A DNA stretch of 64,000 nt from a virus. Location of the stretch: IMG/VR virus record IMGVR_UViG_3300044742_000375, one strand, 5' to 3'. The notes under the pieces were generated by a model. The model worked only from the letters and a program-made list of their open reading frames with translations, was not told the origin of the DNA and did not search any database. The translations under genes and the position numbers were made by a program. Positions 32,907-62,651 of the stretch are shown here, one piece after another (position 1 is the stretch's first letter; each line of letters begins with the position of its first letter).

Positions 32907-32909
32907 GGT

Positions 32910-37519: not shown

Positions 37520-38385
37520 ACCGCGATGGCCATCACGCCGATGCCAGCCGCCGCGCCGACCATGCTGCCGATACCCGAGGAGGTGTTCTGCGCGATGGCC
37601 GCGTTGGCGTTGAACCCGGCCATCTGGTTTTGATAGCCCGCGTTCGTCGCGCTGATACCCGTGGCCTGCGAGGCGTTGGCGGCGCTCGCCCACTGCGTCG
37701 GGTTGCCCATCATGGAGCCATAGACGTTCGATGTGTTGATCCCGGCGTTGATGCCCGCCCCGCCTTGCCCGGCGGCTCCGGTGCCAGCCCCCACGGACCC
37801 GCCATATTCGGTGGTGACCTGACCAGGGTAGCCTCTGCCCACGTTGACCGCCGCCGTCTCCAGCCCGCGCCCCACCGCTTCGGTCTGCAGCCTGGACTGG
37901 GTGCCCGCGCTGGCCTGCGCCGCCGCCTGGGAGATGCGCGCGCCCAGGTCCAACGCGCCGTAGCGGGTTTGGCTGGGGTCTATGTTGTACCCCTCCAGGG
38001 TCTGTAGCGCGGCGTTGCGCTGGCCCGAGAACGCCGCCGACACGTCGCCTTGCGCCATCGCCGATTGCTGCGCCGCGCGTTGGGGCGAAGCGTAAGCTTG
38101 CGCTTCGGACGCCAGCCGGGCCTCGATGGGCTGATAAGTGCTTTCGTAGAAACCTTGCGCCTTGCGCGCGTTGGCCAGCTGTTCGTCCTGCGCGGCCCTG
38201 GACTGATCGGACGCCAAAAGCATCTTATCCATGAACGCCTTGGTCTGCGGCGCCTGATCGGCGTATTGTTGCTTGGCCCAGTCCAGTTGTTCCCTGGAGA
38301 CCTCTCCTTGTATCCTCGCCGCTTCAGAGGACGACTGCGCTATCGGCGAATAATCCGGAGCCTGCGGCGCGCTACCCTTGGCCAT
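37516..38385 (-). CDS. putative internal virion protein (289 aa, Gln/Ala/Gly-rich, C-terminal hydrophobic segment)
   Basis: track ORF; TAATG overlap upstream; composition and position only. Confidence 0.6.
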   Translation of the reverse strand: MAKGSAPQAPDYSPIAQSSSEAARIQGEVSREQLDWAKQQYADQAPQTKAFMDKMLLASDQSRAAQDEQLANARKAQGFYESTYQPIEARLASEAQAYASPQRAAQQSAMAQGDVSAAFSGQRNAALQTLEGYNIDPSQTRYGALDLGARISQAAAQASAGTQSRLQTEAVGRGLETAAVNVGRGYPGQVTTEYGGSVGAGTGAAGQGGAGINAGINTSNVYGSMMGNPTQWASAANASQATGISATNAGYQNQMAGFNANAAIAQNTSSGIGSMVGAAAGIGVMAIAV

Positions 38386-38843
38386 TACACATGCTCCGGT
38401 GTGTTACTGCGATAGTGTTTCGGTGTCAGGGCCAACCATTTGCACTGGGATCGCTCCATGGTCAGCACGATCAGGTCGGAACCGTCCGAATAGGTGTCGG
38501 TGATGCGCGCGGCGGGGACGAACCCCAGACGTACATTCACCGCCATGGCCCTCGCGTTGGCTGAACTGACGAGACCGATGACTTTCCGGCAACCCAGTTG
38601 GACGAACGCGTAATGGAACACCATCCACAGGAAGTCCCGTGTCGCCCAGTTATCCTCCGATCCGGCCATGTGCACCGTGATCGACGCGCCCAGGTAACCC
38701 GTGAACACCACGCCCCCGGCGATCTTGCCGTCACGATGCAACGCCACGGTGTGATCGGTCTTCTCGTTGAACACGCCGCCCACGCGCAGCATGATCCAGT
38801 CGCCGTCGCCGGGGTGGTTCACGCGGACTTCGCGGTGGCTCAT
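38385..38843 (-). CDS. GNAT-family N-acetyltransferase
   Basis: track ORF; VQLGCRKVIGLVSSANARAMAVNVRLGFV resembles GNAT motifs A/B; ATGA overlap upstream. Confidence 0.65.
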   Translation of the reverse strand: MSHREVRVNHPGDGDWIMLRVGGVFNEKTDHTVALHRDGKIAGGVVFTGYLGASITVHMAGSEDNWATRDFLWMVFHYAFVQLGCRKVIGLVSSANARAMAVNVRLGFVPAARITDTYSDGSDLIVLTMERSQCKWLALTPKHYRSNTPEHV

Positions 38844-39043
38844 CTGAGTTTGGCCTGGATATCAGCCGCGCTGACCAAACCCAGATCGACCAAATCCCGC
38901 AACGTGACCGCCCGGTCGAGTGTCCCGCCACGGAACCCGGCCAGCGACTCGACGCCCTGACGCAGCTGCATGACGACCGACACGAGCGCGTTGACGTCGG
39001 CCTGGGGTGACGAGATGGCCGGGATGTTGGGGTTCTTAGACAC
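38840..39043 (-). CDS. hypothetical virion-module protein (67 aa)
   Basis: track ORF; overlaps both neighbours. Confidence 0.55.
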   Translation of the reverse strand: MSKNPNIPAISSPQADVNALVSVVMQLRQGVESLAGFRGGTLDRAVTLRDLVDLGLVSAADIQAKLR

Positions 39044-46318: not shown

Positions 46319-46672
46319 TTACATTGACGACGAGCCGTTATCCAACTGATTGATAGCGGCCTCGGCGGCGGTCCAGAACGTGGTCCAATGACCGGCCAGG
46401 GTGTTCATCGCGAACTCGTAGTCGGTACCGTTTTTGCCCGGCGTGACGCCGTCGGGAACGATGCCGAAATTGTTCTGCACGAACATGTTACCTGGCGTCG
46501 TCATATTACCCGCCTCGTACTGGGTGCCGGGAGTACCGACGTAACCAGCCGAAGCCGTGGCCAGGGCATCCTGCAGCCGCGCCATGGTGGTGTTCAGGCC
46601 GAGCAGCCTGCCCACGGTCTGGTTGGTCATGCTGCCGAAAGTCGTATTGGTCGGAATGATAAGAGCGGCCAT
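46319..46672 (-). CDS. hypothetical protein (117 aa)
   Basis: track ORF; TGATG overlap with fibre stop. Confidence 0.6.
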   Translation of the reverse strand: MAALIIPTNTTFGSMTNQTVGRLLGLNTTMARLQDALATASAGYVGTPGTQYEAGNMTTPGNMFVQNNFGIVPDGVTPGKNGTDYEFAMNTLAGHWTTFWTAAEAAINQLDNGSSSM

Positions 46673-49600
46673 CAGTGTATCCTCTGTTCAAGTGTTTCGA
46701 GACGCGCCGTCAGTTGTCGCACGGAACCGATCAGGGCCGCGATGAGCGCCTGATCGTTGAGTTGCCAGTAGCCCTCGCCTTCCGGGCCGTTCAGCCCCGG
46801 ACGCGCGCCGACGGGGTAGACTTCACCGACTTCCTGGGCGATCAGCCCGACCGGGATGATGATGGTGTCGTCCACCTCCCGCGTGTTCCCCTCGACGGTT
46901 CGGGGCTCGGACGGTTTCCGCCAGCGATACTGTTTCAGTGGTATCGCGTTGATCGCCGCGAGACAGTCAAACGTCGAGGGTGCGATGTCCTGTTTAAGTC
47001 TCCGGTCGCTCCAGGACCCCACCGCGTAGTCGGTCAAATAGTTGCCATCGACCCGGCCCCACACGCCGGTGAGGCCGTCGAAGTAGAACGCGTGGCTGGC
47101 CACCGGACCCAGGTTCTTATAATACATGCCCGCCCCCGAGACGGACGCCGTTCCGGGTATCGACAAAATTCCGGTGTGGGTTAGCGTCAGGATGCCGACG
47201 GTGTTGTCGATGATCATCCAAACGCCGTCGGATGACTGACGGCCCATCCAGTAGTTGGGGTTGTTGGCGACATACACGCGACCGCTGATGGTCATGATAT
47301 CGGCGCAGGTGAAGTAGCCGTTCACGGTAAGCGCGCCCGTGCAGGTATCCCCCGCTTTGTAAAGATAGCGCCCGTCAGCGGCGGGAGTGGTATAATAATT
47401 ACCCTGGACCCAGGCCCGCGAGGCTATTGTTCCCTGGAACGAATTATCAATGAAGTAGTTCAGAGCCCCGTTGGGACCGTCCCAGCCAAAGCCGATGACG
47501 TTGGCGGACAGGCTACGGTAGATGATGCCGCTGGTAACGCTCGCGACACCACTCATGTAGACGGTCGGCGCGACCAGGGCCAGTTGAGTCATCCCCGCGT
47601 CGACCGCGAACTCCACGGTCGTCGCGGTGGCGTTGCCGATATAGCCGTGTCGCGTACCGTCGGGCGTGTGAAACCCGAGGTGGCCGCTGTTGGTGGCGCT
47701 ACCCAGGTCCAGCCTGGAATAACCCACGCCCGTCCCGACCTGGAGCGCGCCGGTCATGGTGTCGCCGGTCTTCTTGACGTAATCGCCACCGGTTATCGCG
47801 ACGAACTTCGCGTCCACGTATTGTTTCGTTGTCGCGTGCATGGGTTGAGTAGGATCACGCGCCAGCCACGCGTCACCGACGTGCAACGACATACCGCCAT
47901 CATCGAAGTGCGCCCAGTCAGTGTTTGAACTGCTGACCATGTAGACCGAACCGCCGACGACATTCATCCGTCCGCCCGAGATCGCCAGCCCGTAGGCCCC
48001 GCCATACATATTGAGGCCATGGGTCACGTCGTTCGATGCACCCACGAAGTTATTCATGTAGATGCCGTTCTGGAACGTCGCCTGACCAGAAACGGCGAGC
48101 GTTGAACTGATACTGACTGACGATCCACCAAAATACAGCGGCTGATACGAAGCGTTTCCGGTGTTGTCTACTCCTTCAATATATGATCCGGCCCCGTCAA
48201 TTCTGAAACGAACGCCCTTGGTGTTTCCATTGATGAGGAGCGCGATTGAAGACCCGTCAGGAACAGACATCCTCACGCCGCTCTGCGCGGTCATCGCGAT
48301 TGTGTGCGCCAACCCGTCGATGCGGATGCCTAGCGCGGAGTTGCTCCATGGCGCGATGGTGATCGCGCCCGTGTCCGGTGCGTATCGACTGGCGACGATC
48401 AAAGCGTCGTTGGTCTGCACGATGGCGTTATACGCACCCGACCCCGCCCCAGGCAGCAACGAGACAGCGGTTCCGGCATAATTGACGTTGATCTGTGGCG
48501 TCACGTTCAACGTGCCGCTCAGATCGCCGCCCGTGAGTTTGAGATACCGCCCGTCCTGCTGCGCGGGCGTGTAGTAGTTCGCCTGGAGATACCCCAGGTT
48601 GACGATGCCATACGCCCCATTTGGAGCGTTGGCGACGTAGCCGTAGCCGTTGATCGTGGTGTCGCCGCCGGTCGCGGAACGCGTGATGTAGAACGGCTGG
48701 CCAAGGAAGGCGCCATCATTACGGTAAGCGAATATCGCGAATGCCGATCCGCCGGTCCCGGTGATCGGATCGCCACTCTGGTCATTGCTGCCGCCCAGCC
48801 GCATGATCCAACGCAACGAGCCGTTGTTGTATCCCATGGCATCGTTGACACCGCCACCGCCACCATTGTTGAGAACAAGGACCGACGACGCGCCAGACGC
48901 GCCGTCTATCTGGACGGTGTTCCTGGCGTAAACAGGCAGGTAAGATGTGACCCTGTCGCCGCCCTTGACGCGGAACAACAGGTTGCCACCGGTATAAAAG
49001 TCATGTGCGTCGGTGGTGTTCTGGGTTGTGTAGTTGAGCGTGTAGCTTGTGACGAGGAACCCATAACCCAGGCCGACCCTTGGGCCGTAGAGGGTGATGC
49101 CGCGCGACCGGTCGTTTGGATCAGCGCCAATGTAGCCGTTGTCAAGGTCGATGGCGCCGTGGACGGTAAGGTCCGTCGCGACATTGAGCGCATTGTAGAA
49201 CGCCGCGTTCCCGTTAGTGTCGATACGAAACCGAACCGCCGGGACGCCCTCGTCGGTGACGACGTAATGACCCCCTGGCTCAAGCCCCGCCCCCCAGGTT
49301 CGCGTGCCGGTGACAGTGTAGAACGTGCGCGCCCAATTGTTATTTGGCACCGTGATGTAAAGCGGGTCCACGCCGTAGTTGATCGTGAGCCGTCCGGTCA
49401 TCGTGTCGCCGCCGACGTTCACCCAGCGAGCGTCACCGGCTACTGGCGTGATGAAGTTGGCGTTGACCCAGCGCGTGTTCGCGACCGCGTCGTCGTTGCT
49501 CGCCGCCGCCGGGGTCACCGTCGTGGTGTTCACCGGGTAGACACCGCCGCCGTCGGTCCAGACCGTCTGGTTACCCCCCGCCTGCACCGTGATCGTGCCG

Positions 49601-52600
49601 CCGCTCGCCCCCGCGAGGGTTATCGGCTGGTTGGTGATGTTCATCGCCGCCCATATCTTCGTGGGGACCGTGGCGACGGGCATGGTCAGGGTCACCGGAC
49701 CAGTCGGTGAGCCCCACATATACAGCCCGTGGGCGGTTATTTCGCCGACGCCCACCACGCGGCTGGTGTTGGCGTCCAGAAGGGCGGTCTGAAACTGCGT
49801 CGGATGGACGTGATCGCCTTGGGCATAATACCAGACATTTGATCCGGCGCTGCCCGCGCCGTCCATCGGCGGCGGGTTCGTGTAGACGACAGGGAGCGCG
49901 CCCTTCATGGCGAGCGCACCCTGATCGCCGCCGTCTATGAACAGGTGAGCCGTGTTGTCGGGAAACCATGTGATGCCGGTCGTGTGCCCGCCGTTCGGCA
50001 GGCCGTCGTAAGAAATCCCGGTGGGGTGGATGGACGCGGCGTCGGTCGTGCCAATAACGAAGTAGTGCCGGGCGTCACCCGCCGCCACATGGTTCATGCG
50101 GAAACTGGTGACCGACTGACCGTAACCCGCGTAATGAAAACTGATATGCTTCGTCAGGTCCCACGGCACGCTGGCGACCGCGCCACCGAAGTCGATGCCG
50201 AGGTTCTGTGGACTTAGACCGCCATGCGTGAAGAACCGGCCTGTCTTACGCTCCATGGCTATTGAGGAGCCGAGATAACCACCCGTGTCACCGTAACGGT
50301 GCAACACGAGATCGACGCCTCTGTCTGTGCCATCCTCATCTGGATAGTTTGAGACGCCCATGTGCCAACGCTGGATGCTACCAATCAGCCAGCTATAACC
50401 AGCCGCGCCCTGCGTGATGCCGCCCGCTACATCGACTTTGCGTGAATTCACATAGACAACGCCAGATGTGCCCACCGACGTACCGACGTTGATGCTCGTG
50501 TTGACGGTCAGATCACCGGTCATGGTGTCGCCAGTGATGTTCACCCAGCGCGTGTCACCCGCCGCCTGCGTGACACTGTTCTGGCTGACCCAGTATTGCG
50601 TGGCCAGAACGCCAACCTCGTTGCCGTCTACCCATCCATGGATGGCGTTGTCACCGCCCCATGAAAAGCCCATGACGTTCGTTCCGGCACCGCCCAGAGT
50701 GTAAACGACCCCTGGCCCACTCAAACTTAGAACGCCGTCGAACCGCAGGAACATCGTGCGTTTCCAGCCGCTCGGGCTGAGCACGTTATACCAAGAGAAA
50801 CCAGCCGGAATCCAGTTGCAGCCGTTGACGAACGCGACATCGCCCGCGCCGTCGGTATTCCATGTCAGATAACCGCCGCCGACGGATGGCAGTGGCCCGG
50901 TGTTCTGCTGCGTGAACAGAAACTCGCCCCGGTTCCATATGCCGTTGTCAACGGTCAGATGGCCGGTGATCGTGTCGCCGGTCACGTTGACCCACCGGGC
51001 ATCGCCCTGTGTGTTGGTTGAGTAGTTGTTCGTCAGGTATTGCAGCGGCACCGCTTCCATCGCGCTGCCGGGGTCCCGGCCAAGCGTGACGGACTGACTG
51101 TTCATGACCACGACCGGCGCGGCCAGACCGATCTGTGAGCCGCCCAGCCAGAGCGGCTGGTAGCTTGTTACTCCGGTATTATCGACCCCCTCGATCATGA
51201 AATAGTCAGGGCCGGAGTTCATCCGAACGCCTTTGGTGGAGCCCCGGAGCATCAACTGGGACTGACCGTCGGGGTGCGAAATGTTCAACGGGCCGGTCAT
51301 GTTGTCGCCGGTCACGTTGACCCAGCGCGTGTCACCTCCGCTGATGCTGATCGTGTTGTTATCGACATACTGCTTCGTGGCGATCCCAAGAGGCGCGGTT
51401 GGATCGTGGCTGACAGTGAGTTCGTTGGCGGCGGTCATCGCGATGGTGCCAGCCGGTGCGTCGATGCGTATGCCCAACGGCACGTTGCCCCACGTCGTCA
51501 ACGTAAGCGCGCCCGTATCCACCGCGCCTCGTGTGAAGATCAACGCCGTATCATTGGACTGGGTGATGCCGTTCCACGCGCCCGGTCCAGTGCCAGGGTA
51601 GATCGTGAATGATGATCCGGCCTGATTGACGTTGATCGAGGCGTTGACGTTCAACACGCCGCTCATCGTGTCGCCGGTCACGTTGACCCAACGCGTGTCG
51701 CCCTGCGTTTGTGTCAGATAGTTCGCCGTCAGATACTGCAACGGCACCGCGTGCAGCGGCGCGGTCGGATCGCGAAACAACGTGGCGTCGCCATTGGTCA
51801 GGCTCAAACCGCCGTTGACCTGTAGCAGCGCCGTCCCAATGGGAGCGGTCTGGCCGATCATGACGATGCCAGAGTGGTCGATCCGCAGCCGCTCCAGGTG
51901 CGCCGTGGTTCCGTTTGGCACAGTCCACAGCGAAGTCCGACGCCCGTTCGCGGTCGCCGTCCAGGCTTCCTCCGCGAACACCGAGACCCCGATCTGTTCG
52001 AGCGTCCAGGCGGTGCCGTTGTATCCCGCCGTGCGGAATGACATGAGCGCGTCGCCAGAGGCGATGGCGAGCGGTGCCCCCGCCGTCCCGTTGGCGCGGC
52101 GATGGATGACCTGGGTGCCGCCCGCGTAGGCTTCCAGCGTGATGTTGGCCGAGCCGCCCGCCGCCGGTCCGACAACCTGGAGGTCGGTGTTTGGCGAGGC
52201 GACAGCCGCCGTGGTCGCGCCCCGGCCCACCGTCGTCTTCGCGCCGACGATCAGCGCCCCGGTCATCGTGTCGCCAACGGTGGCCACGCTGCGCTGCCAC
52301 GCGCCTGTTTGCAGCCGCCCGAACGTTCCGGCCCCGACAGGCTCGGCTATGAAACCATCATCGCCATCAACGCCGGGGACACCCTGAACGCCCTGTGGAC
52401 CCTGCGCGCCGGTCGCGCCGACAGGACCCTGCGCCCCCGTGGCCCCGGTGGGGCCCACGGGCCCCGGCACCGTGCTATCGGCACCCGTGGCGCCCGTCGC
52501 GCCTATCGGCCCCTGGACGCCCTGTGGACCCTGCGCGCCGGTCGCGCCGTCCACACCCGCCGGTCCGGTGGCACCCGTGGAACCCGTCGCGCCCACGGGT

Positions 52601-53403
52601 CCCTGAGTGCCCGTGTCGCCTTTGACGCCCTGCGGTCCGGTCGGGCCTGGGATACCTTGTTCACCCTGCGGCCCTTGTATGGGCCCGGCGTTTATCCAGA
52701 CACCCGTCTCGGTGTCCCAGATCCACATATCGCCGGTATCCTGGACGATATACGCGTCGCCGTCCGAATTGCCCGTGGGCGGAAGCGAGCCGACATCGGG
52801 CACCTGGCCCTTGACGTTGATGCCCGTACCGGCGGCGCCGGTCTCGCCCTGAATACCTTGTGGTCCCTGCGGCCCAACGGGACCCTCCGCGCCGGGCGTG
52901 CCTGGCACGCCCTGAGGCCCGGTCGCGCCGTCCACACCAGCCGTGCCGGGAACGCCCTGGATACCCTGGGGGCCGGTGGCGCCCGTGTTGCCCGTGTCGC
53001 CCTTGGCGCCCGCCGGACCGGCCGGACCTTGAACACCCTGCGAACCCGTGGCGCCATCCGCGCCATCGTCACCCGGAACACCTTGCGGCCCTTGCGGCCC
53101 GGCGGGGCCGGGAACTGTACTGGCGGGCCCCTGAGGCCCCGTCGGACCGGTAGGACCCACCGGCCCCTGAGGCCCCGTACCGCCCGACGGTCCCATGTCG
53201 CCCGTGCTGACGTCGATCTGGACCGGTTCGGGAGTGAAAATGTCGATATCCACCGACCAGACCGGCGGCGTCATGACAACGTCCACCAGGATCGGATCGG
53301 CGTCGTCGGTCTGGATATCCACCGACATATTCACAATCGGATAGACGTCCACCTGGGTGGGCGTCGGCTCCGTGGATACGTCGATGGACACGATGTCGTT
53401 CAT
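46672..53403 (-). CDS. giant tail fibre (2243 aa) with collagen-like Gly-X-Y tracts and C-terminal intramolecular chaperone domain
   Basis: track ORF 46672-53496 trimmed to ATG 53403 (ATGA overlap with upstream stop); Gly-X-Y tracts; repeated GDT(M/L)(T/S)G and DPT.P....TKQYVD motifs; C-terminal SDRRLKQDI...LETLEQRIH (about 46675-47019). Confidence 0.85.
52357..53193. repeat. collagen-like Gly-X-Y coding repeats (two tracts split by an about 49-aa insert)
   Basis: [17 protein letters not shown]... and [16 protein letters not shown]...; 33-nt exact DNA repeat near 52389 and 52518. Confidence 0.85.
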
Positions 53404-53741
53404 GTTAATACCGTAGTGACGTCGGAGGTCGTGTTCACCTGTCCGGCGAGCACCGTGGCGACGTCGCCCCAGGCGTACGTCACCTGCAGATCCCACACCG
53501 ACGAACTGGGCAGTTTCGCCGAGTCGTGCGCCGCCAGCACCATCACCACGGTGTTGGGCACGTTGATCGTGCAGGCCATGCCCGCGATGAACGATCCACC
53601 GCCCCTGTCACGTATTTGCGCCACCACTTTCGCGCCGTTCAGATCGGCGGGCACGGTACGCTCCGTGTCCAGCCACAGCTTGAACCGCCAGCGATACGTG
53701 TCGCCACGGTAGATCAGCAGGGGCATCTTCCCCGGTGTCAT
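53400..53741 (-). CDS. hypothetical tail-associated protein (113 aa)
   Basis: track ORF; ATGA overlaps on both sides. Confidence 0.6.
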
Positions 53742-55051
53742 TTCCCCGCCTTCAGCGCGGCGACTTCCGCCGCCAGTTCCTTCATCCCGTTCACCAGGGC
53801 GACGATGATCGGCGTCATCGTGATGCCCAATATCGGATCGTCGGTGTCCAGTTTGTCGAAAGGACGCACCGCCAGCGGAATGACCTCGCGCAGGGCCTGC
53901 GCGGCGAAACCGATCTCGCGCGACCCGTCATGGTCGATACGGGTGAATTCGATGGGTTCCAGTTTCAGTATGTCCGCCAGACCGCAGGACGCCGGAACCA
54001 TGTCGGTTTTAAGCCGTGTGTCGGAACCGACGAAGTAATCGACGATCCCGCCAAACCCGCCAATCAAATTGATGCAGTTCTTATCCGACGTGCGCATCTG
54101 GAAAAACGTGGTGAACGGCGCGGGCAACGGACCGATCCACGTCATGTCCCCGGTGGTGGTCGACCAGTGCCAGGCCCAGTTCGGGTCCATCTGCAGAACA
54201 CGCCCGCTCACGTTCGCCGCCAGCGCCATGCTGCCGCCAGCGGCGGTCACCGCGCCGTTGGCGGCCACGTTGTTCCCGGAGTTGAGTTGTCCGGTGTTGA
54301 TCCCAGCCGTGACGTTGAGGACACCGCCTCCGGTCAGGGACATGACGGGGACGCCACCATTGACCCATGTCCGCTCCCCGCCCGCTATCGCCCACTTGTT
54401 GGACCAACCCGGCGTGAACTCCTGGACGAGACTCACGCCGTCGTTATAAAATACCCACGAACCCAGACCCAGGGCCTTGCCGAAAACGCCGTTGGCGGCG
54501 ATGAGTTGATCGGCGAACAGGTTACCGGCGCTGGAGATGGTGCCCGCGTACAACGTGCCCTTGACGCTGAGATTGCCGCCGCCATCCAGGCTCATCAGGC
54601 CGTCATTGGCGCCGATCCAGTGCCGCGCGCCGCCCGCGCTCACCCACACGTCGGACCAACCCGGACGATAGGTCTGGAAATGGTCGCCGTTGGCCGCGAC
54701 CGTCATATACCACTCGTACTCATTAAATTTGTTGATGAGCAGAAAATCCTCGGCGTACAGATTCTTCGCGGTCAGCGACCCGTCGATGCCCATGTCGCCG
54801 CTGATATTTCCGCCGGTCCCGCTCATCTTGGTGTCGGCGTAAGCTTTGTTGACGGCCTGGGACGGCGTGGTGGGATTGTCCACCAGATGCAACGGTCCGG
54901 TCATGAAACCGCCGGACAGGGACAGGAACGGCGCGCCCGTGAACAGCACGTTACTCATGTCCACCTTGCGGCCCCACCACGAATTCCACTCGTTCGCCGA
55001 GGGTACGTACCCCGCCGTCCAGTTCGGTGTTTCCCCCGTGCTGCCGCTCAT
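53738..55051 (-). CDS. tail fibre protein (437 aa) with C-terminal intramolecular chaperone domain
   Basis: track ORF; LSLSGGFMTGPLHLVDNPTTPSQAVNKAYAD fibre motif; C-terminal SDTRLKTDM...[11 protein letters not shown] (about 53741-54028). Confidence 0.8.
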   Translation of the reverse strand: MSGSTGETPNWTAGYVPSANEWNSWWGRKVDMSNVLFTGAPFLSLSGGFMTGPLHLVDNPTTPSQAVNKAYADTKMSGTGGNISGDMGIDGSLTAKNLYAEDFLLINKFNEYEWYMTVAANGDHFQTYRPGWSDVWVSAGGARHWIGANDGLMSLDGGGNLSVKGTLYAGTISSAGNLFADQLIAANGVFGKALGLGSWVFYNDGVSLVQEFTPGWSNKWAIAGGERTWVNGGVPVMSLTGGGVLNVTAGINTGQLNSGNNVAANGAVTAAGGSMALAANVSGRVLQMDPNWAWHWSTTTGDMTWIGPLPAPFTTFFQMRTSDKNCINLIGGFGGIVDYFVGSDTRLKTDMVPASCGLADILKLEPIEFTRIDHDGSREIGFAAQALREVIPLAVRPFDKLDTDDPILGITMTPIIVALVNGMKELAAEVAALKAGK

Positions 55052-55060
55052 GGTCTGTCC

Positions 55061-55429
55061 CTAGCTCTGGATGGAGAGAAGTTGGCTGACCGCCTTGTTC
55101 ATCATGCTGACGGCGCGCGAATCCTCGCTGAACGTATCCTCGCGCAGTTCCGCCCGCCCAACGAGATAATACACGAACGCGGAATAACAGCTGGTATCCA
55201 ACGGAAACGAAGTGCTCATGTCGGTGGCGGCGGTATAGAACGCCAACGGTTTGCGCAGCCCCAGGGGCAGGAACAAATCAGGACGCTTGGTGCGTACCTC
55301 GGCCAGCATGGAATTGATCGCTTCGAACATCTCGTCGTCGGTGTATCTCAGCGCGCCGCCGGACGTGCCGATCTTGTCCTGCAACATCGTGCGGGCCTCA
55401 CCGATGAGCGTGCCGAACGTCCGGCCCAT
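55061..55429 (-). CDS. virion protein (122 aa), possibly head-tail adaptor type
   Basis: track ORF; position only. Confidence 0.6.
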   Translation of the reverse strand: MGRTFGTLIGEARTMLQDKIGTSGGALRYTDDEMFEAINSMLAEVRTKRPDLFLPLGLRKPLAFYTAATDMSTSFPLDTSCYSAFVYYLVGRAELREDTFSEDSRAVSMMNKAVSQLLSIQS

Positions 55430-55776
55430 TACCTGCGTTTCCTCTTACGAACGGGGATGACTTTCTTGACCTTGCCGCCGCGTGCCAGACCTAGTTCCGT
55501 ACGGGGCGGGGGCGCTTCCGAAAGCTCTTTCATCTTACTCCGCGTCGTCCCCGCCGTACCCGATACCACCATACGATCCCTGGGGTCCGTCACGGGGCGC
55601 GTCAAAGCCATCTTCGTCTCCCAACTCAACCCCCGCGAGTTATGCACGCCTCGGTATTTCTTGGCTTCCTCGTCGACGTCGATCTCTTCGTCCGGCTCAA
55701 GCTGCTGCCCCTCGACGAGACCGCCATCCTGAAACCCCCTGCGTTTAACAGGCGCTTTGCGAACCGGCTTTTTCAC
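55429..55776 (-). CDS. Lys/Arg-rich small protein, GGKVKK family member 5 (115 aa)
   Basis: track ORF, GTG start with GTGA overlap; N-terminal RGFQDGGLV, C-terminal ARGGKVKKV. Confidence 0.6.
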   Translation of the reverse strand: MKKPVRKAPVKRRGFQDGGLVEGQQLEPDEEIDVDEEAKKYRGVHNSRGLSWETKMALTRPVTDPRDRMVVSGTAGTTRSKMKELSEAPPPRTELGLARGGKVKKVIPVRKRKRR

Positions 55777-56042
55777 CGGCCCTTCCTCTTGGCTTTGAGA
55801 ACCTTCTTGACGGGAACAACCTTTTTCACCTTACCACCCTTGGCCATCTCCTTGCCGTCGGCGAGATCGCTCATGGACCATGAGTATCCGTCTCTGTTGT
55901 CCAGGTCTCGGAGAGGTTTGCCGGTGTACTGAGCGGTATCGCGCGTCAAAGCGGATGGATCTCTCACCATCTTGTCGTCACCACTAAGCCGCATCCTCGG
56001 AGGAGGCGGACCTCGTGAACTGATTATACCTCTCGGTGCCAT
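55773..56042 (-). CDS. Lys-rich small protein, GGKVKK family member 4 (89 aa)
   Basis: track ORF 55773-56045 trimmed to ATG 56042 (ATGA overlap); C-terminal MAKGGKVKKV. Confidence 0.6.
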   Translation of the reverse strand: MAPRGIISSRGPPPPRMRLSGDDKMVRDPSALTRDTAQYTGKPLRDLDNRDGYSWSMSDLADGKEMAKGGKVKKVVPVKKVLKAKRKGR

Positions 56043-56500
56043 CAACGCCCCCTCTTCTGAGGTAGCTTGCCCTTGTTGATCTGACCCATCGCCGCGTTAC
56101 CCAACTTCTTGACCGCTGACTTGCGTATGACCCACTCGCCCTTTTGCGCGGGTATCAGCCCGTCGTCCTTGCCGATGGGTTTGCCCGCCACGCGTTTGAT
56201 CTTGCCGCCGCGCGCGTTGCCGCCCGCCAGGTCGCCCGGCACGCCGGGCAGACCGCCCGGCACCCCACGCACGTAATCGTTGCTGGCCGAGGGCAATTTC
56301 GGACTGGACGTGTTCTGCGCTTTGTCGCCCGGCTTATCTTCCGGCTTTTTCTCCGGTTTGCTCGCGTCTTTGTAAGCCGAGCCGAGGTCCATGCCGGTTT
56401 TGAAACCACCGGAGATGCTACGCCCCAGGCTGTCCGTGCTCAGCACCTGCCCGCCGTAATCATACCCGCGCACGCGCTTGAGGATCGGTTTCCTGGGCAT
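56042..56500 (-). CDS. Lys-rich protein, GGKVKK family member 3 (152 aa)
   Basis: track ORF; N-terminal RGYDYGGQV, C-terminal ARGGKIKRV. Confidence 0.6.
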   Translation of the reverse strand: MPRKPILKRVRGYDYGGQVLSTDSLGRSISGGFKTGMDLGSAYKDASKPEKKPEDKPGDKAQNTSSPKLPSASNDYVRGVPGGLPGVPGDLAGGNARGGKIKRVAGKPIGKDDGLIPAQKGEWVIRKSAVKKLGNAAMGQINKGKLPQKRGR

Positions 56501-56760
56501 CAGCGTTTCTTCTGAAACGGAAACGGTTTCTTCACCTTACCCCCCTTCTTAAACCCCATGGGCGGCACGGGCCCGCCGGGGTTGGTCGAGGCGCTGGGCG
56601 CGCCGGGACCGCCCGAGGCCAGCGTGGGAGGCCCGGCGGCCGCCGCTGGTGGCGGCGCCGGGGTCACGTTGGTGGGGAGCTTGGCGGCTTTCTTGCTACC
56701 CAACCCGAGCGAGGGCGGCACGGACCTGCCCTTAGCTTTACCGATGGATGGAGGTCTCAT
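56500..56760 (-). CDS. Pro/Lys-rich small protein, GGKVKK family member 2 (86 aa)
   Basis: track ORF; C-terminal FKKGGKVKKP. Confidence 0.55.
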   Translation of the reverse strand: MRPPSIGKAKGRSVPPSLGLGSKKAAKLPTNVTPAPPPAAAAGPPTLASGGPGAPSASTNPGGPVPPMGFKKGGKVKKPFPFQKKR

Positions 56761-57239
56761 TTGCGTTTCCCGAACATCTGACGTTGACCCGCTTTGTCCT
56801 GAGCCTTGTCCTTGGGCGTGCGCTCGTACGCCTTCATGGAGACGCCCATTTTCTTCGCGCCCGCCTTGTCCTGTTTGAGGTCTTTTTTGGAACCTTCGAA
56901 CAGCGGCTTTTTCACCGGGCCTCCCTTGGCGAAGCCGGGATAATCCGCCCGTTCCTGCGCGAATTTTCTGCCCGAGACCACGCTCCGGTCACCCACGGCC
57001 GTGTTCATCCGATTGGTATCTTCCAGAAAACTCTTCTGCCCCTCCGGACTCATCCGGTTGTAAAGCGCGGACGTTTCAGCACCACGCGCGGCTCTGAACC
57101 TTTCCCTGTCGCTATCGGTTTTGGCGGACCTGTCGAACGTCTCTCCTAGCTGATCGTCTTTGTCGATTTGAAATTTGTAACCACCAACCGAGCCGCCCTC
57201 GGCATAACCCTTGCGTTTGGGTACTGGTTTTTTCACCAT
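56757..57239 (-). CDS. Lys-rich protein, GGKVKK family member 1 (160 aa)
   Basis: C-terminal part of track ORF 56757-57641 from ATG 57239 (GGAGG 6 nt upstream); N-terminal KGYAEGGSV, later FAKGGPVKKP. Confidence 0.6.
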   Translation of the reverse strand: MVKKPVPKRKGYAEGGSVGGYKFQIDKDDQLGETFDRSAKTDSDRERFRAARGAETSALYNRMSPEGQKSFLEDTNRMNTAVGDRSVVSGRKFAQERADYPGFAKGGPVKKPLFEGSKKDLKQDKAGAKKMGVSMKAYERTPKDKAQDKAGQRQMFGKRK

Positions 57240-57253
57240 GCGAACCTCCGTCA

Positions 57254-57273
57254 CCGCTGGCCGAAGCCAGCGG
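57254..57273 (-). promoter_or_regulatory. post-capsid stem-loop with UUCG tetraloop (attenuator or RNA-stability element)
   Basis: CCGCTGGC-CGAA-GCCAGCGG on plus strand (loop UUCG on the transcript) between capsid stop 57290 and next start 57239. Confidence 0.4.
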
Positions 57274-57289
57274 TTACTACGGGAGTGAA

Positions 57290-58231
57290 CTAACCCCGAA
57301 CGGCGTAGAGTTCGGTGATGGCGATACCGTCCAGGACCTTGGACGAGTACACCTGCAGACCCCGCAAGAGGGTGGAGAACGACCGCTCGGAGCGCATCTG
57401 CTCCAGCTTGGTGATCTGGCTCGCGAAGGTGAGCCCATGCGGGTGACCGGCGAAGATACGGAACGCGGTGGCCGCGCCCTCGGTCGCCGTCGGCAGCAGG
57501 TTGGATGAGTACAGCGTGAACCGGTCGATCATGCCCAGGCGACCGTTGCGGGTCATGGACACGCCGTCGCCCGAGATGGACGCGTTGCGCAGATCCGACT
57601 TCTTGATCAGCGCCGCGATCCAGGGCGGGATCACCAGCCAACGTCCCGTTTCCGGGATGTTCTGCTCGTCCAGCACGGTGCCCAGGTCCACGATGCTGTC
57701 GATGATGTTGAGCGGCGTCACCGCGATGGGCGTGCCCGTGGCGCCGAGGTTGATGTTCAGCGAGATGCGTCCCGCCGTGGCGCCCTTGTTCGCCGCGACG
57801 ATACCGGCGTCGATGGTGGTGAGCACGTCGGTGTCGATGACGATCTTCATCTGTTCGGCGGCGTCATCCGACCACAGGGAGAGCAGGTTGATGTCGGACT
57901 GCACCTCCATGATGTCGTCCAGGGCTTCGTTGAAGTACTTCGCCTTGTCGATGGTGAAGTCCACGATGTTGGACGACGGACGATCAATGAGCAGGTCCTG
58001 GTTGACCTGATAGTCCCTGATCGTGATGGTCGGTTTGGTGCGGATGTGAACCACGTCGCCCTGGTTCTTGATCTCGCCTTCGTAGTCCGTGTTGGCGATG
58101 GCGCTCAGCACGGTGGCCGAGTAGAACTTCTCGATCAGTTTACCCGACCAGATCTCCGGAATGAACGTGCCGTGGTACGCGGGGGTTTGATTTGCGCCAG
58201 CCCATGGGGTGGCCGCGATTGTGATGGCCAT
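57290..58231 (-). CDS. major capsid protein
   Basis: track ORF (313 aa); strong GAGGAG RBS; directly downstream of scaffold-like gene and portal. Confidence 0.8.
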   Translation of the reverse strand: MAITIAATPWAGANQTPAYHGTFIPEIWSGKLIEKFYSATVLSAIANTDYEGEIKNQGDVVHIRTKPTITIRDYQVNQDLLIDRPSSNIVDFTIDKAKYFNEALDDIMEVQSDINLLSLWSDDAAEQMKIVIDTDVLTTIDAGIVAANKGATAGRISLNINLGATGTPIAVTPLNIIDSIVDLGTVLDEQNIPETGRWLVIPPWIAALIKKSDLRNASISGDGVSMTRNGRLGMIDRFTLYSSNLLPTATEGAATAFRIFAGHPHGLTFASQITKLEQMRSERSFSTLLRGLQVYSSKVLDGIAITELYAVRG

Positions 58232-58261: not shown

Positions 58262-59278
58262 TCATGACTGACGGAAGCGTCCTTCGAGCGGAGCCAGGAT
58301 GATATCGCGCTCCAGACGTTCAGCTTCCGCTTCACGCCCGGCCCAATAGCCACGCTGTTTCTGTCGATAGAACGCGTTGACGTCCGCCGTCGTCCAAATG
58401 CGTGCCTCGGGAGCGCCGGGCGCCGGGGATGAGACACTGCGGCCTCGTCCAGGCACCGCCAGATCGGCGAGGGGTAGCCGTTCCGCCGAATCGGTCTGGA
58501 ACGTCTGTGTCCCTGGCTGCTGGCCAACCACGGTCTGCTCGTTCTTGTACGCACGGAAGAACGCGATGGTCCGCGCGGCATCGCCCGAATTGTAAGCGTT
58601 GTCAATAAGAGTTTTACGCGTTTGGCCGCTGAACATGTCCGGCTGGTTCAGCCACGCGATGAAATTCGGGTCCACGTTGATCTGTTCCCAGTCCGGCACG
58701 GCCTGGGACAACGCCACGTCCACGCGTTGCTGCGTCGTGTACGTCGCGAGTTGTTGATTATTTCCCTCCACCGCCAACAGACGCCGCTCGTAATCCTGCA
58801 GGATGGGTGCGTAACGCGCGTCGGCCCATCGCTGCGACGCCTCGATCAGGTCCTGGCCATAAGCTTCGACGTCTTCCGGGGGCACCTCCCGCGTGGGCGG
58901 CGGCATGGGACGTACACGGGGCACGTTCTCGAACGTCTCCTCCGCGCGCCGGGGCTGGTTCATTTGCGCCACCATGTTCCTCAGGGAGTTCAACTCCCCG
59001 CGTAGCTCGGGGACCTCGGTGTTATATTTGCCCTGCAGCGTGTTGTACCGTTGCTCCCAGTCGTTGACGGGTTGTTGCGGAGTCGGTTGCTGGGGCCGGT
59101 CACCCAGGTCCAGCTGTTGCTGGACCGGTTCCTGGTCGCCTTCGCCGTTCGCCACGGGCGTGTCACCCTCGGGCGCGTCGGGAACATTGGCCACGCCCGC
59201 CTCGCGCGCCAGTTCATCGGCGCGCGCCGACGCGCGGCGAACGGCTTCGGGCAGGTATGGTTGATGCGTGTCAGACAT
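58262..59278 (-). CDS. scaffolding protein
   Basis: track ORF (338 aa); Gln/Glu/Ala/Pro-rich, between portal and capsid. Confidence 0.65.
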   Translation of the reverse strand: MSDTHQPYLPEAVRRASARADELAREAGVANVPDAPEGDTPVANGEGDQEPVQQQLDLGDRPQQPTPQQPVNDWEQRYNTLQGKYNTEVPELRGELNSLRNMVAQMNQPRRAEETFENVPRVRPMPPPTREVPPEDVEAYGQDLIEASQRWADARYAPILQDYERRLLAVEGNNQQLATYTTQQRVDVALSQAVPDWEQINVDPNFIAWLNQPDMFSGQTRKTLIDNAYNSGDAARTIAFFRAYKNEQTVVGQQPGTQTFQTDSAERLPLADLAVPGRGRSVSSPAPGAPEARIWTTADVNAFYRQKQRGYWAGREAEAERLERDIILAPLEGRFRQS

Positions 59279-59543: not shown

Positions 59544-59701
59544 GTTTCACTCCATTTCCTCAATGCGTCCGCGATCAGGTCACGCTCTTCCACGGTGAGC
59601 CAGTGCCATGGTGTCACGATGCGGTCGATACCCTGCTCCCACACGCGCGCGTAAAGCAGGTCCTTGATCAGCTTGTCCCGCAGCGCGTCTTTAGAACTCA
59701 T
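59540..59701 (-). CDS. hypothetical small protein (53 aa)
   Basis: below cutoff; MSSKDALRDKLIKDLLYARVWEQGIDRIVTPWHWLTVEERDLIADALRKWSET. Confidence 0.4.
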   Translation of the reverse strand: MSSKDALRDKLIKDLLYARVWEQGIDRIVTPWHWLTVEERDLIADALRKWSET

Positions 59702-60017
59702 TTTTCATACTGTAATCGCCGCTCGGACCAGCCACGCCCTTCTTGCCCGGCCCAAGCCCGCCACGCGCGCGCCTGATCCCGCCGCCACCGCCACGGATCT
59801 GCGACAGCGGGTTGCCGGGGCCACGCTTGCCGTAATGGCCCATCGCGCGGTGCAACGGGTCACCCGGCGTCATGGTGTTCTTCAGCCCCGTGTGCGGCGT
59901 GCTCAATTGTTGGTGTTTGGCGTTTTTACCGCCACCGACATGCGTGGTTTCGGCGCCGCCACCACCCATGCCGAACAACATGCCGCCCACGCCAGAGCCA
60001 AATGACGGGAGTGCCAT
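59691..60017 (-). CDS. Gly-rich basic protein (108 aa)
   Basis: track ORF; GAGGAGGG RBS 5 nt upstream. Confidence 0.5.
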   Translation of the reverse strand: MALPSFGSGVGGMLFGMGGGGAETTHVGGGKNAKHQQLSTPHTGLKNTMTPGDPLHRAMGHYGKRGPGNPLSQIRGGGGGIRRARGGLGPGKKGVAGPSGDYSMKNEF

Positions 60018-60229: not shown

Positions 60230-60424
60230 TCAGGTCCCGCAGATGCCGTAGGTGCTGGCTGGCTTCTTCTCCGGGTTCCAGTCCGTGCGGCGGATCGACT
60301 TACCCTTGGGGTAGTGGCGAGATGATCCGGTGGGGCCCGAATTCTCGCCACCCGATCCGCCGCCGGATGCTTTCATGCTGGTACCGGAGCCCGACGACTC
60401 CGTCTTATCGCCTGAATTAACCAT
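60230..60424 (-). CDS. Gly/Ser-rich small protein (64 aa)
   Basis: C-terminal part of track ORF 60230-60637 from ATG 60424; 8-nt overlap with portal stop. Confidence 0.4.
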   Translation of the reverse strand: MVNSGDKTESSGSGTSMKASGGGSGGENSGPTGSSRHYPKGKSIRRTDWNPEKKPASTYGICGT

Positions 60425-62651
60425 GTGGTGCTCCTGATCCTTGTGAGAACGCGTTGAACGACGGTGGCCGGGCGGGTCCCGGCTGGCGTGACTGGCCTCC
60501 CTGGGCCTGGCTCCCGGTTGACGGTCCCGCTGGCCCTTGCGGCCCAGGTGGGCCTTGTGGCGCCTTCTCCTCGCCGGGTTTCGGTTGCTGCTCCTGCCCC
60601 GGCGGACCCGGTGCCGGGGCGCCGACGGACTGGGCATGCGCCTGAACGGCCATTCCCGCCGCCTGGAGGCGCTTCTGGGCGTCCATCTGGGCTTGCAGGG
60701 TCTGGTCGTCGGGCACGATGTCGTCGGGCAGCCCCATGCCCTCGGAGATGGCGCGCAGCAGGCGCGCCCTGCCGATCTCGCCGATGATGGGACCGTCGAT
60801 GGGGTTGGCGGTGATCTGCAGGAACTGTAGCTGACGCTGGCGCTCGGTTTCTTTTTGAGCGGAAACCTTACTCCCCAGGACCTGGACCTGCTCCTGACCC
60901 GTCAACAGGTCCGAGGTATCGGTCAGCATGATCATCTCATGCAGCGCCTCGATCAGCGGCTCCAGGACGTTGGTGTCCACGTTCGCCGCCACGGTCTGCA
61001 ATACCTTGGCGGCGTTGTTCATGAGCATGGACAGGCCCGAGGCGGTACGTCCGGCGCCGCCTGACAGGCTTTCGCCCGTCAGATACCTGGGAATGGCCGA
61101 TTGTTCGTCGGCCATCACGTTCATCGCGTTGATCACACCCAGTAACTCCTGGGTGTTCGACGTGGGTTGGAAGAACGTGACGGGTTCGCGCTGGTTACCG
61201 AGGGGATCGCCCTGCACGTGCCAGCGTTTCCAGGGATACAACTCGTCGCCGTTCTCGGTGGGCGAGACCATCTCGTCGTTGACGATGACCTGGGGGCCCG
61301 AGCTTATCGAGAGGTTGTTCACCAGCGCCCGGTACGCCGCGTTGGCGACCTCCTGGATATCCTCCAGGATATCCGGCAGGGCGTGCCCGGCGATGGTGCC
61401 GGGGACTTTCTCGAAACTGGTGAGATAAAACGGATGGCGTTGCCTTGGAGACGGGTTGATCTGCGTCTTGATGGTCCACCGGCCCACCACCCAACTCTGG
61501 ATCATGTATTCACGGTCCGAATCGGGGATGAGTTTGGGACTCACGCCCTCGTCGAGCAGGGTCTGACCCTGCACGTTGCCGTGGAACTCGATGCCCTCGA
61601 TGTACTGAGATCTATTAAGGCTAGGATCTTCCCGACCTTCGTTGATGGCCTGCTCCGGGTCCGGCGCGTCCAACCACTCGCGTAACCCATGCGCGTAATC
61701 GGTCAGCGCGTTCCTCACGGCGGGCTCGTCATAGCCGGGCACGCCCAGCACATCGTTCAGATCGGCGCGCGTGTATCTCACACGCTGGATGATGGCCGCG
61801 TCGGACAGCGCCGAGGCGCCGGGGGACCAGTAGATATCGAACGGATTGACCCGTTCCCAGAACATCACCGGCTTGTTCTGCAGGCTGGGTCGCTTATCCA
61901 GCCAGGTCAGCCGGGGCACCATGCGCACCACGGGACCTTTCATCACCGCGTAGGGGAACAAAGGCAGATCTTGCAGGAATTCCCCCATGGCCTCGTAAAA
62001 ACCGCCCGCCTGGAGGATATCGTCCATCTTGTCGGTCGCCGCCTGGGCCTGGGTCATGGCGTTGCGGCGCGACGCCTGTTGCGCGGCGTGCAACAGGTTC
62101 ACGTAGCGCATGTGAACCTGGTTCTCCTCGACCGGCTGACCCGCCATCTGGAGCGTCTGGACCTCGGTGGATATCAACTGGAGTATGCTGGTGCGTATCT
62201 CGGGCGGGATCGGCGGGTCGGCGATGGCCCGGAGTTGCCACGGGCGCTCGGTGCCCAGGTAGACATCCCTGAGCAAGGCGGTGGCGCCGCGACATTTATT
62301 CGCTACCTGCCTGGAATAGACCTCCGAGCCACCAAAAGCCTGGATCTGGGACAGTTTCTCGGCGTCGTACTTGCCCTCGAACATGCGTTGGGCGCGCAGG
62401 AGCCGCTGATTGAGCGGATTATTACCCTGATTGCGATGGTTTCTGAATATGAACCATTGCTGGCGTATCCAGGACCCCAGATCGGGCGTCTCCAGGCGTT
62501 TGGAGCCGCTTATTCTTCGAGTATTCGCCTCCTGGTCGCGTCGGTCCAGTTGCGAGGGGGAGATGACACGCAGGAAGCCGCCGTTGTCGCCCGCCGAGCG
62601 CGCCTGGGCGGGGTAAGACGACGATGACAAACCTGCTTGGGCCAATGGCAA
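60417..62651 (-). CDS. portal protein
   Basis: track ORF (744 aa); TTG start 8 nt after GAGGGGG; conserved-looking GRTASGLSMLMNNAAK region; first gene of the virion arm. Confidence 0.88.
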   Translation of the reverse strand: MPLAQAGLSSSSYPAQARSAGDNGGFLRVISPSQLDRRDQEANTRRISGSKRLETPDLGSWIRQQWFIFRNHRNQGNNPLNQRLLRAQRMFEGKYDAEKLSQIQAFGGSEVYSRQVANKCRGATALLRDVYLGTERPWQLRAIADPPIPPEIRTSILQLISTEVQTLQMAGQPVEENQVHMRYVNLLHAAQQASRRNAMTQAQAATDKMDDILQAGGFYEAMGEFLQDLPLFPYAVMKGPVVRMVPRLTWLDKRPSLQNKPVMFWERVNPFDIYWSPGASALSDAAIIQRVRYTRADLNDVLGVPGYDEPAVRNALTDYAHGLREWLDAPDPEQAINEGREDPSLNRSQYIEGIEFHGNVQGQTLLDEGVSPKLIPDSDREYMIQSWVVGRWTIKTQINPSPRQRHPFYLTSFEKVPGTIAGHALPDILEDIQEVANAAYRALVNNLSISSGPQVIVNDEMVSPTENGDELYPWKRWHVQGDPLGNQREPVTFFQPTSNTQELLGVINAMNVMADEQSAIPRYLTGESLSGGAGRTASGLSMLMNNAAKVLQTVAANVDTNVLEPLIEALHEMIMLTDTSDLLTGQEQVQVLGSKVSAQKETERQRQLQFLQITANPIDGPIIGEIGRARLLRAISEGMGLPDDIVPDDQTLQAQMDAQKRLQAAGMAVQAHAQSVGAPAPGPPGQEQQPKPGEEKAPQGPPGPQGPAGPSTGSQAQGGQSRQPGPARPPSFNAFSQGSGAPHG

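Follow-up and report, generated by a model that had tools for sequence, protein, structure and literature searches.

The tape-measure protein (TMP) of a phage occupies the tail lumen and is expelled ahead of the DNA. The internal proteins of phage T4 bear one N-terminal targeting peptide, which directs them to the scaffolding core and is cleaved off by the prohead protease, and encapsulins load cargo on the inner face of an HK97-fold shell by means of short Gly-rich terminal peptides that combine a hydrophobic residue with a basic end. The TMP of mycobacteriophage Douge seals the channel (PMC13033339). In T7, gp7.3 is anchored to the nozzle inside the channel by its C-terminal loop, touches the DNA end with residues K84 and K85 and surrounds the DNA with its basic unstructured N-terminal part; gp6.7 is bound in twelve copies, via short loops, to the portal barrel and gp15, occurs afterwards together with gp14 in the extended channel, and is ejected to join the trans-envelope channel (PMC11784390). 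T-even internal proteins are a diverse injected set that shares only a short conserved targeting sequence (PMC3012670). The channel-plugging, DNA-end and first-injected small proteins of short-tailed phages are poorly understood, and those of T7 were resolved only in 2024 (PMC11784390). Here, we analyze five consecutive small genes, designated A to E, that follow the major capsid protein gene in a 64,000-nucleotide stretch of viral DNA (IMG/VR record IMGVR_UViG_3300044742_000375; the whole stretch is referred to below as the window).

We tentatively view the array as a lineage-specific, fast-evolving set of small, basic, disordered virion proteins that are built from TMP parts. That the products of A to E are virion-internal proteins which pass the tail channel and are ejected, like T7 gp6.7 and gp7.3 and the exiting end of a TMP, has, in our judgment, slightly less than an even chance. 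Presence in the virion, docking and ejection are all suggested by sequence features and by analogy, and docking of the motif described below onto a virion protein is less certain than presence in the virion.

The Array and Its Terminal Motifs

Genes A (56757-57239, 160 amino acids (aa)), B (56500-56760, 86 aa), C (56042-56500, 152 aa), D (55773-56042, 89 aa) and E (55429-55776, 115 aa, GTG start) follow one another on the minus strand. Upstream lies the major capsid protein gene (57290-58231, minus strand; PF25209 at E 2.7e-8, phrog_267 at E 2.5e-61), and downstream lies gene F (55061-55429, minus strand), whose 122-aa connector-like product is predicted to be folded (phrog_23601 at E 2.5e-14, with a weak SU10_adaptor match) and which is followed by fibre genes. 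Successive stop and start codons overlap from A to E as ATGA, TGATG, TGATG and GTGA, and then as TAATG into gene F. The gene coordinates, the coupling and the location between capsid and tail genes thus agree with the original prediction, which had been made from the letters of the window and a list of its open reading frames (ORFs).

Two motifs were defined by regular expressions, the N motif as [KR]G[YF]xxGGx[VI] and the C motif as [KR]GG[KPRV][VI][KI][KRQH]. A six-frame scan of the window found the former three times and the latter five times, always inside A to E. Hidden Markov models (HMMs) of the motifs, trained on relatives only (window excluded) and run over 1167 stop-to-stop pieces with the bias correction of HMMER, recovered the same sites, with E-values of 3e-9 to 6e-6 for the three N motifs and of 5e-7 to 5e-4 for the five C motifs; every other match had E>1. 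The predicted count of eight copies was therefore reproduced by both procedures and is significant after compositional correction. The N motif reads KGYAEGGSV in A, RGYDYGGQV in C and RGFQDGGLV in E; the C motif reads FAKGGPVKK in A, NARGGKIKRV in C, MGFKKGGKVKKPFPFQKKR at the end of B, MAKGGKVKKVVPVKK in D, where it is the only one of the two, and LARGGKVKKVIPVRKRKRR in E. In addition, B holds one degenerate GGPV.

The surroundings of the motifs are strongly charged: a charge of +5 to +6 falls on the 12 residues preceding each N motif, and one of +3 to +6 on the 10 residues that follow each C motif. Such basic stretches outside the motifs are peculiar to the small proteins, since the equivalent flanks in TMPs average about zero.

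The DNA segments that encode the motifs are only 62-72% identical to each other, so the similarity of the motifs is old and maintained at the protein level. Recent duplication was considered as a source of these segments and rejected, the direct DNA repeats being merely 62-72% identical. Pairwise protein comparison, corrected for composition, gave significance for just three pairs: A-E (E 1e-4 over 120 aa), D-E and B-E (the latter at C-terminal ends). Outside these pairs, the five proteins share short motifs only. Calling all five genes paralogues was thus only partly right; the array consists of three conserved orthologous groups plus variable cassettes. Two further readings of the motif were dropped: the KGG stress repeats of Pfam, to which there was no Pfam match, and LxGG sites of the adenain/ubiquitin type, in which the hydrophobic residue is out of register.

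The array genes are real and under purifying selection. Compared with orthologues in three relatives, the ratio of nonsynonymous to synonymous substitution rates (dN/dS) was 0.16-0.33 for the array genes versus 0.04-0.16 for the capsid protein and F, and the dN of the array genes was three- to twenty-fold that of the two flanking genes.

A Tape-Measure Module in the Product of Gene C

In protein C, a low-complexity linker and the C motif are followed by a module of the TMP type (aa 105-150; 56051-56188, minus strand; GKPIGKDDGLIPAQKGEWVIRKSAVKKLGNAAMGQINKGKLP). Residues 94-150 match the TMP families phrog_3547 (E 1e-6) and phrog_10030 (E 4e-5). The module has 28 invariant columns over 13 C orthologues, and the profile of these orthologues matches gp16, the TMP of mycobacteriophage Douge (chain S of PDB 8zdo, an entry identified in PMC13033339), at two sites. 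A word-indexed search returned 122 proteins, and HMMER, run exhaustively over 1.84 billion representative proteins, returned 1772 clusters at E<=1e-3, 223 of them at E<=1e-10. The matches fall into two groups, small proteins of 60-250 aa and giants of 2000-7600 aa that contain 2-7 copies of the module. Since four of the five giants longer than 1900 aa that were scanned against Pfam carry PF10145 (PhageMin_Tail) near the N-terminus (residues ~120-320), the giant module-bearing proteins are TMPs.

The unit found in these TMPs consists of [FY]AxGGx[VI], GxGxxDx[IV]PAxLxxGE[FY]V and AVxK[YF]GxxFxxxLNxGxxP; in many cases another [FY]AxGG follows immediately. In the 59 matches of at least 1000 aa, [YFM][AS]xGGx[VIL] occurs 219 times versus 4.9 expected from shuffling, an excess that is in part inflated by the way the proteins were retrieved (see below). 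About half of the 219 copies stand 20-30 aa ahead of a GE[FYW]V module and the remainder far from any module; 89 fall within the C-terminal fifth of the protein. The N and C motifs of the small proteins are thus two forms of one TMP repeat motif, with C carrying both the motif and the GE[FY]V...LNxG module and A, B, D and E the motif only. We treat the combination of C-terminal motif and module as a feature of a large subset of TMPs, defined in this analysis.

Neither the motif nor the module of the TMPs has a Pfam or NCBIfam model, and a light search of the literature found no described function for them; searches for the motif peptides as text strings gave only noise. For A to E themselves, there is no Pfam match at E<=1 (PhageMin_Tail included), no NCBIfam match and no PHROG match except the TMP families of C. 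The earlier statement that no function has been described for such proteins therefore holds as far as Pfam, NCBIfam and PHROG give nothing functional, but it had overlooked that the motif is a TMP repeat.

A Constant Core and Exchangeable Cassettes

Twenty-seven related loci (denoted here by L and P numbers) were compared: 22 IMG/VR loci found with gene F as anchor and five obtained by exact-protein look-ups. Array architectures were read from full locus listings, and automatic architecture tables, which suffer from errors of the regular expressions, were used only alongside. A profile of the five proteins retrieved only 17 proteins, all metagenomic, and in tblastn searches of 50,697 GenBank phages C had no match and A a single one, in a metagenome-assembled phage. 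Gene F is conserved at 69-99% identity across the 22 IMG/VR loci. The gap between the capsid gene and F measures 950-2050 nucleotides (nt) and holds three to five small basic genes in all 27 loci, every one of which has the three components A-tail, B and C in identical order.

The A-tail is a module of ~50 aa with the pattern [FY]EGSxKDxxxDKxGAKKxGVSxKAYExTxxDKxxDxxGQ... and is usually encoded by a stand-alone gene of 50-57 aa, the first after the capsid gene; almost all of its 345 homologues are stand-alone proteins of ~52 aa. In the window it forms residues 112-160 of A (56757-56906, minus strand; E 1.8e-30 with the A-tail (A4) profile), where it is a two-fold repeat, [FY]EGSxKDxxxDKxGA / YExTxxDKxxDxxG, that ends in QMFGKRK. 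The B protein of the window is rich in Pro, Ala and Gly (22% P), contains no acidic residue and ends in its C motif; B proteins of relatives are likewise Pro/Ala/Gly-rich, have 59-95 aa and end in GF[KR]KGGKV.... The third component, C, opens with a basic tip, the N motif and a SLGxSIxGGF helix. The minimal array is the core trio alone (L010, L024 and L035).

To the core, the loci add zero to three cassettes, each made of MKKPVRKRKG[YF]AxGGxV, an unrelated middle and [AF][KR]GGKVKKVxPxKRKR, which are fused ahead of the A-tail, inserted between B and C, or placed after C. The cassettes of the window are D, E and the first 111 aa of A, which comprise a basic tip, the N motif, a helical middle and the C motif. 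The middle of A resembles a stand-alone cassette at the last array position in L018, orthologues of D were found only in the closest relatives of the window (L007 and P0012), and orthologues of E occupy the last array position in L003, L009 and L013. Cassette content varies, and gene number ranges from three to five, even among phages whose capsid proteins are 95-99% identical. P0017 has, between its two motifs, a middle whose sequence suggests a globular domain and has no match in Pfam, PHROG or PDB sequences; some cassettes of relatives contain Gly-rich hydrophobic stretches.

Neighboring units are joined in several ways: a cassette with the A-tail in gene A of the window, the A-tail with B in P0302 and P0310, and a larger fusion in MW202675.1, a 61-kb metagenomic phage in which a single 382-aa protein has seven GGx[VI] motifs, the A-tail and a B-like Pro-rich end (47829-48977, the same as L037 4380-5528). 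The annotation of this fusion gene as ‘yenB’ is wrong, as is that of the neighboring ‘type I restriction enzyme’, which is a polyvalent protein with an InPase domain.

Among cultured phages, the Rhizobium phages of the RHph_TM27A group come nearest: their capsid protein shares 63% identity with that of the window, and their virion module is syntenic with that of the window. Searching the whole RHph_TM27A genome with four HMMs gave no match, and F directly follows the capsid gene there. Because RHph_TM27A is syntenic yet lacks the array, the array is a lineage-specific insertion. Homing-endonuclease genes (HNH_3 or GIY-YIG) stand at array borders in several relatives (L003 6692-7240; L014-L016 3040-3990; L035 5602-6423), and the dS of the window array is 0.8-1.7 versus 0.3-0.7 for the flanking capsid gene and F; given these two observations, the array looks like a recombination hot spot. 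Two relatives (L022 3614-4234 and L023 3650-4237) have, between the capsid and A-tail genes, an additional acidic Pro-rich protein of ~200 aa with PPHPDxGLPG repeats.

Module Proteins in Other Capsid Lineages

Phages with a BPP-1-like capsid (PF20911 GP7 and a Bbp16-like cement protein) likewise encode small proteins with the module; one of these phages has a T7-type portal. In L028, L029 and L036, consecutive small basic genes separate the capsid/cement genes from a Gp10-like gene, and in L030 a 121-aa module protein directly follows the portal gene, so that module proteins are placed in the head module in three capsid lineages. A second terminal motif, LYDHPRS / KLYGxK / MYxxKR, is found at protein ends in L028 (8001-9884), L029 (651-1952) and L036 (7001-8251); in some cases it marks both termini of a protein and again the beginning of the following one. 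The QMFGKRK end of the A-tail in the window is similar to this second motif.

Some distant relatives begin with an MPxxSxxQxRxM domain, which also opens jumbo-phage proteins annotated as ‘virion structural protein’ (phrog_22033 and phrog_25121; phage 121Q and others). We do not count this domain as part of the GG family, since the one such jumbo-phage protein examined, that of EJP2, lacks the GG motif, which makes the domain an independent module.

Composition and Predicted Structure

The prediction that all five proteins are very basic proved correct: their isoelectric points are 10.0-12.0, K and R make up 17-25% of the residues, and the net charge is +12 to +18. The scaffold and the capsid protein, in contrast, are acidic, with −14 and −9, respectively. 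In the charge-hydropathy plane, A to E all fall on the disordered side, and the capsid protein and F on the folded side. No membrane-spanning segments were found in A to E.

The AlphaFold2 model of C (58-sequence alignment) has a mean predicted local distance difference test (pLDDT) score of 59.7 and just two short helical regions. That of A (53 sequences) reaches a mean of 72.9, with helices at residues 27-98, in the middle of the cassette, and 118-157, in the A-tail, the motif regions being of low confidence. A Foldseek search of the A model against PDB and BFVD gave no match at E<=0.001 and detected no DNA-binding fold; the nearest sub-threshold matches were A-tail homologues in uncultured phages only. 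A to E are thus predicted to be largely disordered.

The Hairpin after the Capsid Gene and the Genomic Surroundings

The 50-nt gap between the stop codon of the capsid gene and the start of A contains a stem-loop, ACCGCUGGC-UUCG-GCCAGCGGU (57250-57277, minus strand), followed directly by GGAGG and ATG. The stem has 9-12 base pairs, the loop is UUCG, and the 76-nt segment folds at −31.4 kcal/mol (z = −2.9). A stem-loop is kept at the same position in the relatives L025 and L018-L020 with different stems and compensatory changes, and two of them add U-tracts. The copy in the window has no U-tract, was not listed by a terminator scan and is not a canonical intrinsic terminator. The ‘attenuator-like hairpin’ of the original prediction is therefore real and conserved; it may be a partial terminator or a stabilizer of mRNA ends, and may in this way set how much capsid protein is made relative to downstream products.

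On the coding strand, the array is preceded by genes for the portal (60417-62651; PF23899 SU10_portal), a scaffold-like protein (58262-59278) and the major capsid protein, and is followed by F and by the genes of two fibres, one with an S74 chaperone domain and one that is collagen-like and has 2274 aa. Farther along the same strand, there are genes for an internal virion protein (phrog_511), a 1071-aa SLT-domain protein and a 2549-aa polyvalent protein (LPD39, with a DarB-like C-terminal part). Because no tail tube, sheath or PhageMin_Tail protein, nor a tail chaperone, was found among the window ORFs scanned, the window phage looks short-tailed.

Several neighbors deserve mention. Between the portal and scaffold genes lies a conserved 108-aa Gly-rich basic ORF (59691-60017, minus strand; VGGxLFGGGGG ... 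RxRGGLGPGK ... DYSMK), also present in L003, L004 and L035, which has no family match and probably encodes a disordered head-module protein. The 2274-aa fibre (46672-53496, minus strand), whose N-terminal quarter consists of long collagen-like G-X-Y runs, is preceded by an LtfC-like gene and the gene of a 437-aa S74-chaperone fibre. Opposite the fibre genes, there are ORFs of 665 and 536 aa (53735-55732 and 52102-53712, plus strand) with Arg/Pro-rich translations; these long antisense ORFs are artefacts of the 62% G+C content and not genes. The virion module at 25257-41249 (minus strand) also holds a PAPS-reductase-like gene (36126-36881), unusual there, and an N-acyltransferase gene (38385-38843); an acetyltransferase near many Lys-rich proteins may merit attention.

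Proposed Role and Alternatives

We propose that A to E would be made late, together with the capsid proteins, and incorporated into the head or the portal-tail channel. As short docking elements, the GG motifs would attach to symmetric parts of the virion (portal, connector or core), the Lys/Arg tips would lie against DNA or acidic surfaces (scaffold, portal), and at infection the proteins would exit through the tail channel, before or with the DNA. The A-tail, B and C would be the constant part of the set and the cassettes its variable passengers. We favor a virion-internal, co-injected role because the modules are shared with TMPs and because the N-terminal domain of some distant relatives also opens jumbo-phage proteins annotated as virion structural. 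Fusions that join neighboring units, listed above for gene A, for the A-tail with B and for the 382-aa protein, also speak for this role. Terminal motifs that serve as docking or targeting signals would fit the order of basic tip, GG motif, variable middle, GG motif and basic tip, and would equally fit the exchange of middles between near-identical phages. The head-internal or co-injected role that had been put forward from the letters alone is thus supported in its direction, as the genes are selected, belong to the head module of a late operon and have modules in common with TMPs.

A number of points weigh against this proposal. The array is absent from RHph_TM27A and is thus not required by this virion design in general. 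Every relative is metagenomic and known from its genes alone, and the AlphaFold2 models are of low or moderate confidence. The profile used for retrieval contained the motif beside the module, so that the enrichment of 219 motif copies over 4.9 is partly inflated and only the half that is independent of the module is unbiased. The homology to TMPs indicates a shared context, the tail channel, and not an activity, and the motif HMMs reveal no sequence similarity to T7 gp6.7 or gp7.3.

A bolder extension of the proposal, which we consider rather unlikely, is that a basic tip with [FY]AxGGxV at each end makes up a portable two-part tag for loading any polypeptide placed in between into the particle and for its exit via the tail channel. 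The array of this short-tailed phage would then be a ‘split tape measure’ whose separately encoded modules, within the portal-tail channel, connect through their end motifs or dock next to one another, the same motif marking module borders in the giant TMPs, and the cassettes, such as that of P0017, would be injected effectors.

Among the other explanations, the one that survives best, although we think it unlikely, is that A to E are needed for assembly only, building the portal, core or connector or chaperoning ejection proteins, and are absent from the mature particle or retained in it without being ejected. Their location in a head-morphogenesis operon, their translational coupling, and their disorder and basic charge beside an acidic scaffold (−14) and capsid protein (−9) would suit such factors, and T7 gp7.3 has been described as an assembly scaffold that joins the nozzle to the adaptor (PMC11784390). 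However, the TMP modules come from a protein that is kept in the particle and then expelled from it, the rapid exchange of cassettes amid near-identical structural proteins would be unusual for assembly factors, and RHph_TM27A has the same module layout without the array.

It is improbable that A to E are many-copy internal proteins which bind DNA or neutralize its charge, like T4 internal proteins or adenovirus protein VII. Such a function would agree with the net charges of +12 to +18 and the Lys-rich tips, and about 1000 internal protein molecules of T4 touch the DNA via lysines (PMC3012670). Yet one set of the five proteins provides +74 versus ~128,000 phosphates in the 64-kb window (or ~133,000 for a genome of about 66.5 kb, the length of the longest contig carrying protein A), so that thousands of copies would be needed, whereas nothing points to a high copy number and the genes lie behind the conserved hairpin that follows the capsid gene. 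The close relative RHph_TM27A packages a similar genome without the array, and no DNA-binding fold was detected. The abundant DNA-condensing proteins envisaged in the original prediction are hence disfavored.

Proteolytic processing at the GG motifs, with the array and its fusions resembling a polyprotein cut at module borders, is about as improbable, and would be compatible with the virion-internal, ejected role that we prefer. Many viral and bacterial proteases cleave after Gly-Gly, the motifs stand where modules meet in A, C, the 382-aa fusion and TMPs, and in another lineage the LYDHPRS / KLYGxK motif marks both ends of neighboring proteins. On the other hand, there is no recognizable protease between the portal and capsid genes, conservation of [FY]AxGGx[VI] extends to both sides of GG, and inspection of the sequences places the hydrophobic residue at P5 and not at P4, where adenain- and ubiquitin-type sites have it.

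We give still less credit to the idea that A to E are non-virion late proteins, with a role in host takeover or anti-defence, which have settled in a recombination-prone gap after the capsid gene. The variable content of the array, the homing endonucleases at its borders in relatives and a dS above that of the flanks are what this idea would predict, but a three-gene core is in constant order in 27 of 27 loci, the modules are common to virion proteins (TMPs) and translation is coupled within a structural operon. Least probable is a role, also raised in the prediction, as external decoration or cement proteins, whose hallmark is a folded domain (Ig-like, beta-tulip, Bbp16-like or similar) bound to the outside of the capsid in fixed stoichiometry. 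For this role it can be said that decoration genes often come after the capsid gene and that a Bbp16-like cement gene is nearby in phages with BPP-1-like capsids, but against which stand the predicted disordered or simply helical structure without a fold match (A model searched) or Pfam match, the change from three to five genes while the capsid protein remains 95-99% identical, the separate cement gene in L028 and L036, and the absence of the array from RHph_TM27A.

Whatever the role, the locus defines an undescribed widespread family, with the module in about 1800 clusters and ~345 homologues of the A-tail, and ties small head-module proteins to the non-ruler C-terminal part of giant TMPs. 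If the end motifs are loading or docking signals, they would account for the delivery of variable cargo into cells by these phages and would offer a simple tag for packaging foreign proteins. At minimum, the result provides an annotation handle for many ‘hypothetical’ head-module genes and TMP regions.

Comparison with Known Systems

In a limited check of the literature, we found no description of the family, of a two-ended motif with basic tips, of a core-plus-cassette array or of the link between head-module proteins and TMPs. With the C-terminal region of giant TMPs, A to E share [FY]AxGGx[VI] and C also shares the GxGxxDx[IV]PAxLxxGE[FY]V...AVxK[YL]G...LNxG module. Whereas a TMP is a very long, mainly helical protein encoded among the genes for tail tube, chaperone and tail tip, A to E have 86-160 aa, are encoded separately in the head module, between the capsid gene and the connector-like gene, and have neither a PhageMin_Tail domain nor long ruler helices. 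The flanks of the motif are strongly basic in A to E (+3 to +6 per 10-12 aa) and neutral in TMPs.

Like A to E, T7 gp6.7 (88 aa) and gp7.3 (99 aa) are small, Lys-rich and mostly unstructured; unlike them, they are encoded upstream of the portal gene, by one copy each and without cassette variation. Kinship at the sequence level, considered because of the strings ‘ARAGGKK’ and ‘FGGKK’, was rejected by the motif HMMs: T7 gp6.7, gp7 and gp7.3 all scored below 0 with both the N and C motif models, and A to E have no Pfam match to DUF5476. The resemblance is therefore one of functional analogy only.

Internal proteins IPI-III of T4 are fast-changing, small and basic, share only a short conserved terminal signal, and are packaged in the head and injected (PMC3012670); A to E would resemble them in this, and the turnover of cassettes at 95-99% capsid identity follows a pattern known for the T4 proteins. 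They differ from A to E, which have two motifs, one near each end, and bear no sequence relationship to them; the N-terminal basic tip and motif are conserved in A, C and E, and the head module contains no recognized protease gene. The encapsulin tags are comparable by analogy to a targeting tag, without a sequence match; they are single, and the shells that they serve contain no DNA. The known kinds that the products of the array most resemble are thus the small disordered proteins of the virion, its channel and its ejection apparatus, and the C-terminal modules of TMPs.

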